Source: a virus (Duplodnaviria > Caudoviricetes). From it: DNA of 37,802 nt. Where the stretch lies: positions 1-37,802 of IMG/VR virus record IMGVR_UViG_3300030372_000099. One strand, written 5' to 3'. The notes under the pieces are model-generated. The model did not search any database. It saw only the letters and a list, made by a program, of their open reading frames with translations, and was not told the origin of the DNA. The position numbers and the translations under genes are program-made. Shown one piece after another: positions 8,720-30,240 of the stretch (position 1 is the stretch's first letter; each line of letters opens with the position of its first letter).

Positions 8720-11284
8720 TTAAGGCGACCACCAGTATTCTTGACCCGTCTGTTTCTTTAATCTTCTCTTATTTCTCCTAGTATCTCTGTCATAATTTGG
8801 GTTTAGCAGCTTTTCTAAGGTATCAAATATCAGCCTTTCTGTAACTATTCGAGTGTACCAGATGTTATTTCCAGGTGTATATCTTTGGATAAATGCTGCA
8901 AGCTCCTTACCAGCATTAGTCTTTTCGCCACTTGCAAGCTGTGAAACATTGCCGATTGTTAAATTTATCAAATCTCCAATAAAGCTAATTACTGGTCCAG
9001 CTACAGTTTTTGATATAGATCCACCATATCTGTTTTGATCTGAAAATAAGAAGTCTCCAAAGATACCTAATCCACCACCATAAATAGCAGCATTAATCCA
9101 ATATCTTACTCCCATGTTTTCTGGAGCTGTAGGTTTTTTACCAGCTGCCATTTGCTTAATTTCATAAGCAAAAGCTCCCATAATAGTTCCACCAATAATC
9201 ATTGGAGCTAAATATTTAAACTTACCACTAAATCCTATTTGTTGAAAACCTCTAGCCAAATGCGTCATGCCTAAAGTAATTGCAAAGTTTTTATACATTA
9301 AACCAGAATTAACTATTTCTCCTTTAACTGTTCCTGGCTTAGCATTTCCAGCTAAAGTAATTCTACCTTTTGCAGATGCAGTAGGTACAGCAAAATTAGT
9401 TTCATTAGTTAGCCATGTCATTAATCTTGTTGTTAAAAATTCTCTTGTAGCCTCATCTAAATCAGCTCTAGCAAAAATATCGTCTGGTCTTAAATAAGTC
9501 ATCCCTTTACCAGCCATAGATGGATCATCTATTCCAGCATCATATAATTTTGTTGTTCTAATAATATCCCATTCTTTTTCGCCAATACCATATTTTTTAA
9601 ATTGTGCTTGTAAATTTTTATGTAGTTTAGCAAATGGAGTTTTAACTTCTTCTGCAAGTTCTCCTAATGCCATCATTCCAAACGCCCATTTATTAGCTTG
9701 CGTAGAATGCGATAACCCAGATCCTCTTAAAACTGCATCTGAAATTCTTTTAGACCACATGGGAGCATCTACTTCCATTAAATATCTATTCATAACTGCA
9801 GCTACGCTGCTCCACATTTCAGCACCTAAACCAAGTTTAATTGCTAATCTTGCTAATTTTTTATCTTTCTTCATACCCTCTGCTAAAAATTTAACAGAGT
9901 TCATATTAGCTCTATGTGATTTTAAACCATTAAATTTTGCAGTATGTCTCATCCAATGCTGATCGGTAAGTGTCATAACCGCAGCTCCACCTAATTGAGA
10001 GCCAGTTAATAATTGTCTTAAAGCTGCAAAAGTATTTCCCCAAAAACCATCAACGGGTTTGCTTAATTGACCCTTATGGTACATCATTAAATTATCAGAG
10101 TTTTCTAAAATAGCATTAGTTCTATCTTGTTCAGTTCTATAAATTTTTACTTGATCTTTTTTAACACCTCTTAATTTACTATCTTTAATAATAGTTTTTT
10201 TTCTTTTAAATTTACCTTGTGCCTCCGCAGCTGCATCAATAGCGGATTGTTTTCTAATCATACTTTTAGCCCAGGTATGAATAGCGTCTGGGTTTGGTCC
10301 AAGGATTTTAAGTATAGCAATATCCCTAGACATACTGTTTATGTGATCTAACATTGTTTTAAATGGATCTGGATTGCCAAATCTAGTTTGATATGCCATC
10401 CAATCATCTGCACTTTTAAATGCTAAAAATCTATGATCCAATCTTCTATTGTGGAGAGCTTTACCCATTCGATTAACTCCAGGTTTAAAATTAGCCATAC
10501 CCTCTGTTGAAATATTAGCATACACTTGACTTAAAGCCTCTCGAATAGATTTATCGGTAAATGGCAAACCAGTTTTTTCATCAATCATTTTTTCTATATC
10601 TAATCTAGGTAAAATAAAATCAATCCAATCTTCTTTTGGAGTGGATCTAACTGTTAAAGTATCGTGCATTTGGGGTAATCCCCAATCATCTCTTGATTTA
10701 ATTTTCATACCATAAGAGTTTGCTCTTACTCTTAAATGTTCAGCTGTTTTTTTCCATGCCTCTGCCAATTCTTGAGCATTAACATTTCCAGTTCTTTCGC
10801 CCATTAACTCTCTAACCATTAATGTTTTATTAGCTTTTTGTTTCCTGGATTGTAATCCTCCCCAACCATATTTGAATTGATCCAAAACATTATTCATTAA
10901 ACTATGAGCTTTCTTAGCCTCATTAGTTGCTTGGTTTTCTATATTAGGTTTATAAGACCAGTTGTCTTGAGCCAGGTAAGCTCTATAAGCATTAGCATAA
11001 TCTACTTCGCCATTTTCATTTCTATAATTTGCAAAATCAAATTCTATCTCTTGCATCTTAGCTCTCATCTGTAAAGTGTATCTTAACTTCTCTGCCTCTT
11101 CTATTTTCATGGCATCGTACACTTCTCTTGCAGATCTTTTCTCAGCCTCTGGCTTAGTTAAATTTTTTCTATATTGATAAAAATCTCTAATCTCATCAAA
11201 ATTTTTATATAATGTTTCTCCTTGTTTTTCAGAAATTAAACCCTCTTTAATACCATTAATAATACATTGCTTAAAACCACTCAT
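8720..11284 (-). CDS. Large internal virion (ejection) protein, gp16/Bbp10-like
   Basis: 854 aa, WGLPQMHD and HRFLAFKSADDW motifs, Gly-rich hydrophobic C-terminal segments; last gene before the tail fibre. Confidence 0.8.
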   Translation of the reverse strand: MSGFKQCIINGIKEGLISEKQGETLYKNFDEIRDFYQYRKNLTKPEAEKRSAREVYDAMKIEEAEKLRYTLQMRAKMQEIEFDFANYRNENGEVDYANAYRAYLAQDNWSYKPNIENQATNEAKKAHSLMNNVLDQFKYGWGGLQSRKQKANKTLMVRELMGERTGNVNAQELAEAWKKTAEHLRVRANSYGMKIKSRDDWGLPQMHDTLTVRSTPKEDWIDFILPRLDIEKMIDEKTGLPFTDKSIREALSQVYANISTEGMANFKPGVNRMGKALHNRRLDHRFLAFKSADDWMAYQTRFGNPDPFKTMLDHINSMSRDIAILKILGPNPDAIHTWAKSMIRKQSAIDAAAEAQGKFKRKKTIIKDSKLRGVKKDQVKIYRTEQDRTNAILENSDNLMMYHKGQLSKPVDGFWGNTFAALRQLLTGSQLGGAAVMTLTDQHWMRHTAKFNGLKSHRANMNSVKFLAEGMKKDKKLARLAIKLGLGAEMWSSVAAVMNRYLMEVDAPMWSKRISDAVLRGSGLSHSTQANKWAFGMMALGELAEEVKTPFAKLHKNLQAQFKKYGIGEKEWDIIRTTKLYDAGIDDPSMAGKGMTYLRPDDIFARADLDEATREFLTTRLMTWLTNETNFAVPTASAKGRITLAGNAKPGTVKGEIVNSGLMYKNFAITLGMTHLARGFQQIGFSGKFKYLAPMIIGGTIMGAFAYEIKQMAAGKKPTAPENMGVRYWINAAIYGGGLGIFGDFLFSDQNRYGGSISKTVAGPVISFIGDLINLTIGNVSQLASGEKTNAGKELAAFIQRYTPGNNIWYTRIVTERLIFDTLEKLLNPNYDRDTRRNKRRLKKQTGQEYWWSP

Positions 11285-13857
11285 ACGCAGTTTTCCAATC
11301 TTTTAAACATAGTTGCAGCTTTTGCGTCTTGTTCAAATGTTTCTCTGGCAGTTGATAATAAAGGAACAATATCTCCATTTTCATCTAGTCTGGTCCCAAT
11401 AACAAACGGAATATCAACATCGTTAGTAGTATTCATTCTTGAAAATTCTTTATCTTTAATTTTAAAGTAAGCATTTTTCATATCAGCCTCTACTTTGGCT
11501 TGCTCTTTCAATGTTTTGTTCCACTCATCCATTGACATACTATCTCTTTGATATGTAATTTTTTTATAAACAGCGTGAGACTTATCTATTATTGGATCTA
11601 ATTCTTTAAGAGAGATTTGTAGTTCAAAAGAAAAACCATCTTTTGTTAATGCTTGCGTATGGATCCGTCTATATTCTGTTGGCGTTTTTCTTTGTGTTCT
11701 TGCAACATCATCTAAAAAATCGTCAATCTCTAAAAGTTTATATGTCTTATTTAATTCAGAAAGTAATAGTTTTGCTTGAGTTATTGTATCTACACTTATT
11801 CTAGCACCTAACCAATCTGGGATATTTTGTGGCTGTAAATCCTTTTTAACAGCTAATTTTTCCTTAATTTTAGCCTTATCTTTAACTCTAGCCTTTAAAT
11901 CGCCATTATATTTTGCTGTAATTTGTTGTAGATCCTTTTTAAGAGGTTTAAGTTTTTTAGATAAAGTGTTGTAAATCTCTTTATAATTATTAGATTTTTG
12001 ATATAACCTTATACCTATGGAATTGAAATCGCCAACAGACTTATTAGCAAGTCCACGAATGAGTGGAGGTTTGCTTTGTGCAGTTGCTAAAACTGTAGAT
12101 GATAAAGCTATATCTGTCTCTTGGGATTTTGATACTAAGTCTTGGGTTTTTGCTAAAGGATTATCAATAGGTACTGTTTTAGCTGCAGCTCCAGCCTCAG
12201 CCTCAGTTCTTATGGCTGCAGATGTTCCAGCATCAAACATTGTTTCTTCCGATAGCGAGGCTTGATTTCTATAAGCTGCCTCATTAGGTACATCAAAATT
12301 TTTAGCTGCCTCAATATCTTGCGCTATTGTACTTTCATTTCTATTAAAATTTGCTTTATTGATACCTGGAGCGTTAGCCTCAGTTGCTACTTTAGGAACA
12401 TTAAAATCAAGAGAGTTTAAATCTTGTAAAGTATCAGCATAAACTCCTTGATCTGTAGCTCCCTCTTTTTCTAATTTAGCTTTTCTTTCAATTAATTTAT
12501 TTCTAATAGTATTAATTTCTTGTTTAGATAATTGAGATACTGTTTTTCCTTGAGCATTTAAGCCAGCAGATCTAATTGTGTAATTAGGATTTCTAACATT
12601 TAAAAAAGCACTAGACTTAGGATCCAGGTTAATTACTCTTTCTGAACCATCTGGCATTTTAACTTTAAGAGAATTACCAGAAGAGCTTTTTTTAATTACT
12701 GGAACATTAACTTTATTTCCTTTAGCATCAAAAATATCAATTAATTGTCCAGGCTTAACTTCTACTGGTGGTCTAAGATTATTTGTATCAATAGGATTTT
12801 TAGCTGGTGGTAAATCTAACTCTGTGCTTTCATTAATTGATTTAACTGTAGCGTTTAATCTTTCTCTATGCTCTGTTCTGCCCGCAGCATTATCTGGAAA
12901 AGGATTATCTTTTTCTGGAATTTTATAATTATCTAAAGCTGTATTTTTATATTTTGGATTAAGATCTCCCATTTCTTTTCCAACAGCTTGCAGATCATTA
13001 TCTGATAATTTAAAAAGATGTTTTTTACCAACATCATATCCTTTACCAAATGCTTTAAATACACCAAGCAATAATGGAGATAAAGTTGCCGATGCACCAG
13101 CTACCATAAAAATATTTTTTAAACCAGTTTCTAAACCAGCATCTTCAAAACCTAATTCTTTTCTGTACGGCTGAGATTGTAATTGTATTAATGCTTCTGA
13201 TACTCCACCTATAACCGCCTCATATCTTGCAACTTTCCATGCTGCCTTACCAAATGTTGCTGGTATAGCATAACCAAATGATGCACCAACACCCATCATC
13301 ATAAATGGATCTTTAAGTGAAGAATATGCCATCCCACCAAAACCACCTAAAATATTTGAAAGTGTAGTAGATCTTGATTTTATTTCAGCATAATCTTGCC
13401 AAGCATCGTGAGCTTTCTTAGCAATAACTTTTTTCATGTTATCGTGATTATCTAATCCAGCCTCAGTTAATTTAAGAGCTATTTCTGGATTTGATTTTTT
13501 AACTTCTTCAATTTGTTTCCAAAAATTTGCCTGGGTCTGTATTATATCTCCGACATTATCAACTTGCCTATATCCTACTACTTCTAAATTTTCGTTGTCT
13601 TGATATTGGCTGCCTCCCATTATACTTTCTATATCTACGGGGTTTGTAAAATTGCTGTTCCCGTTTTCATGTAGGAGCTGCACTACATTTCCATATTCTT
13701 CTTCCAAATTCATTAATTCAGAATGAGACCATTCCGTCATACCAAATGCTTTATTAACAGCATTAAAGTTTTCAGATATGCTTGTTCTTGGTCCCTTAGA
13801 CCAGCTCTCATTTACTTTAGGAGTAAGAGCTTTATCTTCATCAAAGAAAATACTCAT
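11281..13857 (-). CDS. Internal virion protein with an embedded RelA/SpoT (small alarmone synthetase-like) domain
   Basis: Lies in the ejection-protein block. Residues ~650-765 carry ARVK, DWLGARI, YRRIH, FELQI and HAVYK in RSH synthetase order and spacing. Confidence 0.85.
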   Translation of the reverse strand: MSIFFDEDKALTPKVNESWSKGPRTSISENFNAVNKAFGMTEWSHSELMNLEEEYGNVVQLLHENGNSNFTNPVDIESIMGGSQYQDNENLEVVGYRQVDNVGDIIQTQANFWKQIEEVKKSNPEIALKLTEAGLDNHDNMKKVIAKKAHDAWQDYAEIKSRSTTLSNILGGFGGMAYSSLKDPFMMMGVGASFGYAIPATFGKAAWKVARYEAVIGGVSEALIQLQSQPYRKELGFEDAGLETGLKNIFMVAGASATLSPLLLGVFKAFGKGYDVGKKHLFKLSDNDLQAVGKEMGDLNPKYKNTALDNYKIPEKDNPFPDNAAGRTEHRERLNATVKSINESTELDLPPAKNPIDTNNLRPPVEVKPGQLIDIFDAKGNKVNVPVIKKSSSGNSLKVKMPDGSERVINLDPKSSAFLNVRNPNYTIRSAGLNAQGKTVSQLSKQEINTIRNKLIERKAKLEKEGATDQGVYADTLQDLNSLDFNVPKVATEANAPGINKANFNRNESTIAQDIEAAKNFDVPNEAAYRNQASLSEETMFDAGTSAAIRTEAEAGAAAKTVPIDNPLAKTQDLVSKSQETDIALSSTVLATAQSKPPLIRGLANKSVGDFNSIGIRLYQKSNNYKEIYNTLSKKLKPLKKDLQQITAKYNGDLKARVKDKAKIKEKLAVKKDLQPQNIPDWLGARISVDTITQAKLLLSELNKTYKLLEIDDFLDDVARTQRKTPTEYRRIHTQALTKDGFSFELQISLKELDPIIDKSHAVYKKITYQRDSMSMDEWNKTLKEQAKVEADMKNAYFKIKDKEFSRMNTTNDVDIPFVIGTRLDENGDIVPLLSTARETFEQDAKAATMFKRLENCV
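12017..12265 (+). CDS. Candidate antisense-nested small protein (possible immunity/antitoxin)
   Basis: 82-aa ORF with a globular-looking core (GGLLCAVAKTVDDKAISVSWDFDTKSWVFAKG). TGaTATAAC extended -10-like element at 11999-12007. Adjoins the RSH domain. Confidence 0.5.
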   Translation: MELKSPTDLLASPRMSGGLLCAVAKTVDDKAISVSWDFDTKSWVFAKGLSIGTVLAAAPASASVLMAADVPASNIVSSDSEA

Positions 13858-30198: not shown

Positions 30199-30240
30199 TT
30201 TACAAATAAATCCTATTGAATATATTGCCAGTATGTCAAT
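30199..30240 (+). promoter_or_regulatory. Repressor promoter (leaderless) with an operator over the start codon
   Basis: TTTACA-16-TATATT, ATG 6 nt later; ATTGCCA-gta-TGTCAAT at 30224-30240. Confidence 0.65.

Follow-up and report, generated by a model that had tools for sequence, protein, structure and literature searches.

How does a phage that builds an alarmone-synthetase-like domain into a virion protein, with no immunity gene visible beside it, escape poisoning itself? The question is raised by a virus record of 37.8 kb, the whole of which was analysed and is referred to here as the window. In it, an 82-codon plus-strand ORF lies wholly within the minus-strand gene for an 858-aa protein (12017–12265 (+) inside 11281–13857 (-)), as had been pointed out in an earlier, sequence-only reading, which proposed the ORF as the immunity partner of the RSH domain specified by the surrounding gene. 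The latter is called the host gene below, and host aa are residues of its product.

The virion gene and its RSH domain

The record is 98% complete, has a GC content of 33%, and represents a marine phage. It is a temperate podovirus whose minus strand carries the genes for terminase, portal, capsid and tail, and whose plus strand carries those for the repressor and integrase. The name of one relative of the 858-aa protein refers to a Ca. Pelagibacter MAG, which makes SAR11 the likely host of the phage. The features of the locus, in window positions, are as follows.

11281..13857, minus strand: host gene; virion protein of 858 aa whose effector slots vary, likely a core protein that is ejected (synteny, domains of orthologues)
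11434..12006, minus strand: RSH domain of the small-alarmone-synthetase fold, host aa ~618–808 (PF04607, E=1e-8; structure model)
11560..11889, minus strand: RelA_SpoT Pfam core, host aa 657–766 (PF04607, E=1e-8)
12019..12264, minus strand: host-frame linker, host aa 532–613, predicted to be disordered (pLDDT ~35)
12017..12265, plus strand: antisense gene, 82 aa, candidate RSH immunity protein with invariant W36 and W43 (conservation in orthologues, free-standing homologues)
11999..12007, plus strand: extended -10-like box, TGnTATAAY, a predicted short-leader promoter (9 nt 5' of the ATG, no SD)
11981..11986, plus strand: -35-like position, TTGAAA or TTGTAA in most orthologues and a degenerate TTATAA in the window (spacer of 15 nt in the window)

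The host gene is the middle of three large virion genes, flanked by those for a head protein (phrog_992) and a virion structural protein (phrog_684, both in PHROGs), and homologues of a neighbour are SPN1S-type virion structural proteins. Podovirus core proteins of this type are ejected, and from the synteny we infer that the 858-aa protein is packaged and ejected as well. Its orthologues variously carry an RSH, Zeta, ART-PolyVal or ParB-like module (the last being a label read from a motif, with no Pfam hit behind it). A conserved backbone with interchangeable effector domains is what defines a polyvalent or polymorphic virion protein, and this is a late morphogenesis gene in which RSH, Zeta, ART and ParB-like domains are swapped among orthologues. 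No MuF domain was found in the protein with Pfam or PHROGs, and no match to it among GenBank phages. ART-PolyVal or other inserts occupy different slots in this protein family (host aa 825–857 in L045, aa 343–464 in P0112, and also in L092), and one ParB-type protein of 2600 aa (L180) contains LAGLIDADG (intein-like) and helicase domains.

The RSH domain has the fold and the Syn1–5 motifs of a small alarmone synthetase. Its model has a pLDDT of ~93 and finds RelP and RelQ as best Foldseek matches, with CapRel and Tas1 further down the list. Residues R657, K659, K667, D681, R686, Y729, H733 and Q747 are invariant in 49/49 orthologues, and E745 is present in 48/49. Syn3 reads R-x-H (Y-R-x-I-H, SxH-like) and Syn4 reads Q-I-R/S (E-L-Q-I-S/R), motifs that are closer to those of (p)ppGpp synthetases than to the GxN/YH signature of Apk enzymes. 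With this signature missing, (p)ppGpp, or modification of another acceptor, would be the more likely activity. On the immunity reading the domain would be toxic, and the distance of its motifs from those of Apk counts against this. Toxic synthetases are encoded alongside cognate immunity in the systems covered by the available text of two reports (PMC12691689; PMC12226406). The sequence-only reading saw no separate antitoxin gene flanking the effector gene, and this is borne out: the neighbours abut the 858-aa gene, and the next gene overlaps its stop codon. A search of the phage genome for an HD_4 hydrolase also gave no match.

A nested antisense gene

The overlap covers host aa 532–613 and so lies, as had been described, N-terminal of the RSH domain (RelA_SpoT at 657–766). 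The warning that came with that description, that the antisense frame shares the wobble positions of the host gene, is well founded: the only host codons that can give rise to an antisense stop are those for Tyr, His and Gln, and open runs are therefore common in this frame. When the single sequence was randomly recoded with synonymous codons (20,000 trials), the stretch stayed open in 14% of recoded sequences, a same-frame ORF of at least 82 codons beginning with Met appeared somewhere in 6%, and an open frame with Met and both Trp residues at the observed places in 0.075%. Taken as a single sequence the ORF is mildly unusual, and it is the comparison of orthologues that settles its reality.

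Orthologous loci were gathered by peptide patterns lying outside the overlap. Those covering host aa 520–700 numbered 109, of which 69 were distinct and 49 non-redundant (<98% nt), loci truncated or split within this region being excluded. The start, tryptophans and lack of stops for which the sequence-only reading proposed to check homologues are kept throughout, with ATG, W36, W43, the lack of internal stops and the terminal TGA retained in 49/49. Each of M1, W36 and W43 requires a C-ending host codon, found in 49/49 at every one of these sites even as the host residue varies (S/A/D/T at M1, T/F/S/L/I/N at W43); elsewhere, C-ending codons account for 2–20% of the use for those residues. Each antisense Trp further requires a host Gln after the C-ending codon, and this too is kept in 49/49, the preceding residue at W43 being any of six amino acids. 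T-ending codons before His or Gln, which would produce an antisense TGA, number 0/136 inside the overlap versus 603/1632 outside.

Selection on the ORF in its own frame was equally clear when changes were counted over 24 disjoint pairs of orthologues. Antisense-nonsynonymous changes at host four-fold sites number 14/430 inside versus 226/1529 outside (p=9e-13), and doubly silent sites changed at 77/551 inside versus 263/1469 outside (p=0.04). A fivefold reduction of the former with near-normal variation of the latter indicates selection at the protein level. The ratio is lowest, 0.18, at host aa 557–613 and intermediate, 0.36, at 532–556, a stretch in which the host frame, too, remains under constraint. 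As a control, a shadow ORF of this frame at 11267–11470 was compared, and it is open in only 24/49 orthologues. A second dip in antisense-nonsynonymous changes is seen at 11281–11574 (host aa 761–857, ratio 0.42); it does not correspond to a conserved ORF, the frame being open in 24/49.

The suggestion that the first ~65 aa read like a folded protein agrees with the AlphaFold2 prediction (pLDDT 83 overall, 81–91 over aa 1–70), in which a beta-sheet and two short helices form a core at aa 1–68. A shift of constraint to the antisense strand, as had been supposed, is supported by a host linker with a pLDDT of ~35, a product with a pLDDT of 83 and the depletion of antisense-nonsynonymous changes. 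Host-nonsynonymous wobble changes amount to 15/246 at host aa 557–613 versus 1–4% elsewhere. The reverse strand of a free-standing Methylophilaceae homologue (see below) resembles the virion linker sequence, so that the RSH-proximal part of the linker, host aa 557–613, mirrors the small gene. Searches with the 82-aa protein found no match in Pfam, PHROGs, NCBIfam or PADLOC, and matches among GenBank phages only at E-values of at least 0.6. With its predicted structure, Foldseek gave none at E<=0.001, VIA-align a best Z of 3.4 and the ESM Atlas nothing usable, results that do not imply a novel fold and neither establish nor count against a kinship with known SAS immunity proteins of the Tis1/IapK type. 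It is considered virtually certain that the ORF at 12017–12265 (+) is a real nested antisense gene and not a shadow of its host.

The box TGATATAAC at 11999–12007 sits 9 nt 5' of the ATG without an SD, just as had been reported. Its TG is present in 48/49 orthologues and its TA.A core in 48–49/49, with a distance to the ATG of 9 nt in 30/49 and 12 nt in 17/49, a conservation that is partly imposed by the host residues L/I-Y-H/Q. At the -35-like position, a G that falls on a host wobble base is kept in 40/49 (TTC 35, TAC 5), and TTGATG-N17-TATAAT occurs in 5/8 of the ParB-type RSH loci listed. The -35 of the window itself is degenerate, which counts against an immunity gene with an independent promoter. 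A resemblance to the other promoters of the phage had also been proposed, and this holds for the repressor gene at 30233, which has a -35/-10 pair 6 nt 5' of its ATG, but not for several other genes, which have clear SD boxes. The repressor gene (30200–30235 (+) for the boxes and start) is likely leaderless. The antisense gene shares its strand with the repressor and integrase. Among short, unstranded, low-depth contigs from four metatranscriptome runs, two overlap the ORF but already begin ahead of the predicted start site, and others map elsewhere in the 858-aa gene.

Association with RSH, and related small proteins

The antisense gene was expected to occur only where the RSH domain is present, and this is what was found: 15/15 RSH-bearing orthologues carry it versus 0/19 complete RSH-less ones of ParB type. 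This set was collected with a query from the ParB-like mid-region, without RSH or linker (42 loci, 39 analysed, three partial ones dropped); among cut genes in it, one has a partial antisense match and four others have none. Most of the 19 RSH-less genes carry Zeta, and ten of them (the Zeta clade) have the same backbone. The orthologues are related, and the contrast of 15 with 19 comes down to few clades and few independent events. A mirror linker is present in 151/151 long RSH-bearing relatives, found with queries that spanned the linker or RSH, and no loss of the gene was seen among the RSH-bearing orthologues of the two sets (49 and 15, partly overlapping), which extend to an RSH identity of ~26%.

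The idea of a cassette inserted in frame is upheld by 10/12 pairs, among the 49 orthologues, with N-termini <8% apart, which differ strongly in both the overlap and RSH. Host aa 500–531 stay within 9% in these swapped pairs, and the point of exchange accordingly maps to the end of the ORF. Distance in the overlap correlates at 0.54–0.65 with that in RSH and at 0.26 with that in the adjacent aa 500–531. The antisense gene and RSH are exchanged together as an in-frame cassette; physical linkage alone would likewise yield co-inheritance, and this counts against the immunity reading.

Other effector domains of the family have nested ORFs of a different kind beside them, in the +1 frame of the host gene, designated F1 (after ParB-like modules) and F2 (after Zeta).

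L144, 4014–4265, minus strand: F1, sense +1 frame, conserved helical C-half
L157, host aa 672–757: F1, as above
L191, host aa 644–715: F1, as above
L157, host aa 1057–1110; L186–L189; L191, host aa 1118–1171: F2, +1 frame, after Zeta

F1 follows the ParB-like module directly in 23/34 ParB-type sequences, is 72–89 aa long, and has a Met start and in some cases an SD-like box; it is missing in seven (L184–L190), one further sequence is cut short, and in three the ORFs present are unrelated. Among the 49 orthologues it occurs only in the two genes with a ParB-like module, and the clade of the window lacks it. Silent variation of the host gene is suppressed over the C-half of F1 in two clades (0/67, p=5e-4; 2/70, p=0.002); in the RSH-ParB clade the silent-site test was not significant for full-length F1 (18/162, p=0.16), the C-half alone having passed. 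F1 is named here as a candidate partner of the ParB-like module. A Met-started F2 lies right after Zeta in 14/14 Zeta sequences that extend past the domain, is 45–65 aa long, belongs to two or three sequence families and mostly has an SD. Its four-fold-site test was not significant (5/61, p=0.54, four pairs), and these ORFs are possible epsilon-like antitoxins.

Homologues of the antisense protein also exist outside phages. When 1.84 billion representatives were searched with a profile, 50 matches came back, 44 of them small proteins (the other six, long repeat proteins, were discarded as spurious), and a word-indexed search returned 154 homologues. Chromosomes of Ca. Methylopumilus have annotated members of the family, and two Methylophilaceae copies lie in small-ORF arrays beside methyltransferase (RM), HNH, PDC-S11-like and GmrSD-like genes, that is, in a defence island. 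The Methylophilaceae loci have no RSH in the neighbourhood of the free-standing gene; an RSH profile had no match in the two genomes, yet it missed the housekeeping Rel as well. In genome samples, such copies came up as follows: 2/151 genomes in a sample of the Methylophilaceae family, the seed and one marginal match within a long ORF in a phylum sample of 401 genomes, 0/401 in a class sample that held no positive control, and, for P0148-type free copies, none among the viral contigs searched. Small-ORF arrays after cspA in Methylophilaceae (L123:5636–7828, L155:1142–2913) adjoin RM and other defence genes, and their ORFs may be further orphan immunity genes.

In 78 of the 120 best listed homologues, the C-half of F1 is fused behind the antisense domain. 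The commonest free-standing form is joined to the ParB-linked nested protein and to nothing RSH-related, which counts against the immunity reading, as the two small proteins may have another job in common. The fusion family (P0259–P0345, P0415) is 104–115 aa long, includes a cluster member annotated in a Pelagibacter MAG, and is possibly an orphan multi-immunity protein. Since the antisense gene and F1 are on opposite strands in the phage, the bacterial form is a true fusion, and retention of a nested-type tail in some fusions suggests capture by the host from a phage. One of these sequences (P0341) is an evident chimera; dozens of multi-member fusion clusters are not so explained. In another free-standing form (P0122, P0124, P0272), a common amphipathic C-tail is carried on a copy 90% identical to the ORF of the window.

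It could be speculated that every effector domain of podovirus ejection proteins (RSH, ParB-like, Zeta) brings an immunity gene overprinted in the adjacent linker, either antisense with its own promoter or in the +1 frame with its own SD, that toxin and antidote recombine as one in-frame unit invisible to gene callers, and that SAR11 and other streamlined bacteria captured and fused these into multi-immunity proteins; this is put forward tentatively, and is doubted somewhat more than it is believed.

Immunity and the alternatives

The reading favoured here, with moderate confidence, is that the 82-aa product is an immunity protein that would bind and inhibit the alarmone-synthetase domain of the same virion protein. 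The 858-aa protein would be packaged and ejected, and in the newly entered cell its enzyme would synthesise (p)ppGpp-type products or transfer pyrophosphate to another acceptor. Lying in the RSH-adjacent linker on the lysogeny strand, with its own predicted sigma-70-like promoter, the small gene would not depend on the late operon for transcription, and its product would protect the lysogen and the cell that makes virions, including from this enzyme when related phages superinfect. Nesting would make enzyme and antidote inseparable, and the free-standing and fused copies in bacteria would be orphan immunity captured from phage. This reading draws on the selection in the antisense frame, the co-occurrence and joint swapping with RSH, the lack of flanking gene space and of an HD_4 hydrolase, the parallel +1 ORFs after ParB-like and Zeta domains, and the free copy among RM, HNH and GmrSD-like genes in two Methylophilaceae genomes. 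Against it, the phage SAS immunity genes described in the available text of PMC12226406 are downstream and on the same strand.

The product could instead be a superinfection exclusion factor expressed by the lysogen. Its target, in concert with the +1-frame protein, would be DNA entry or the virion protein after ejection, and synthetase activity would be left alone. A promoter-like box of its own on the repressor strand, fusion with the +1-frame protein in 78 of the 120 best listed homologues, and the overlapped exclusion genes of phage Fc02 (PMC9936078) would suit this. It is nevertheless unlikely, as the gene is missing in 19/19 complete RSH-less orthologues, ten of them (the Zeta clade) with the same backbone, it swaps with RSH and not with the N-terminal virion part, and the +1 protein is lacking in the clade of the window. 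There is even less to recommend a functional but unrelated small gene that came into the linker along with the RSH cassette and has been carried as a hitchhiker through linkage. Adjacency does suffice for co-transfer, and free-standing homologues have no adjoining RSH, but zero losses in the 49 + 15 partly overlapping orthologues, to ~26% RSH identity, and the separate nested ORFs alongside other effector domains make this quite improbable. Poorer still are the prospects of a positive regulator, in which the protein would serve as chaperone, activator or timer of an RSH that does not kill but adjusts the stringent response of the host at infection; the RelP/RelQ-like fold and SxH-like Syn3 would fit it, as would the pleiotropic alarmone effects discussed for phage polyvalent proteins (PMC5512222, in the text available), yet copies in bacterial defence islands are easier to understand if the protein inhibits a phage enzyme than if it assists one. 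Finally, a shadow ORF of the shared-wobble frame, or constraint at the RNA or DNA level only, is scarcely credible despite the many long stop-free runs of this frame in the 858-aa gene and the single-genome null of 6%, because doubly silent sites vary almost normally (77/551 versus 263/1469) with fivefold fewer antisense-nonsynonymous changes, homologues stand free in chromosomes, and the control shadow is open in just 24/49.

Known systems each match one element of the proposed immunity arrangement. The MuF polymorphic toxin Apk2, with IapK and Aph1, is likewise a head-associated protein of a temperate phage with a C-terminal SAS-fold domain and a small cognate immunity protein (a candidate here), but the present phage has a podovirus core protein without a MuF domain, its RSH domain lacks the Syn3 GxN and Syn4 YH signature, and there is no downstream iapK or aph1 and no hydrolase gene was found, the candidate immunity gene being nested antisense (PMC12226406, as far as its available text goes). 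Phage polyvalent proteins are multidomain virion proteins that are packaged, as the 858-aa protein would be, with RelA/SpoT, ART and ParB-like domains shuffled among orthologues; no nested partner genes are described in the available part of that paper, and the word 'antisense' is absent from its main text (PMC5512222). In the Rpn system (RpnL/RpnS) the antitoxin is also encoded inside the toxin gene, but RpnS is the in-frame, same-strand C-terminal part of the toxin, whereas the product here has an unrelated fold, lies on the opposite strand of a phage virion gene and has free-standing homologues (PMC10400984). The olg1 ORF in the T6SS effector gene tle3 is, like the present one, fully nested, antisense and under purifying selection within a toxin gene; it is young, species-restricted and not an immunity gene (tli3 is separate, and 'immunity' has 0 occurrences in the available text), unlike the old, family-wide antisense gene bound to one domain described here (PMC8850804). 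Bxa is a polymorphic toxin carried by a prophage and countered by its cognate immunity proteins, Bsi/BAH (again a candidate here); its chemistry is that of an ADP-ribosyltransferase, and the available text reports no nested genes (PMC11699363). The full-text literature searched, in which subscription papers are few and supplements are not included, yielded no phage virion effector gene with an immunity gene inside it, whether antisense or out of frame. A virion SAS toxin with immunity (Apk2), an antitoxin in a toxin (Rpn) and an antisense gene in an effector gene (olg1) are thus all known, and none of the systems found combines them.

The locus is an unusually clean and old antisense overlap, in which mother gene and nested gene each have independent homologues, and it adds a new small-protein family, named here as a candidate inhibitor of a phage alarmone synthetase. 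It offers a possible answer to the question of how self-poisoning is avoided when a polyvalent virion protein has toxin-like domains but an immunity gene cannot be seen: the linker may hold an overprinted partner that annotation overlooks. The locus also points to an unrecognised arms race of effectors and immunity between phages, likely of SAR11, and their hosts. The layout is possibly general and hidden, and linkers beside effector domains are worth searching in alternative frames.
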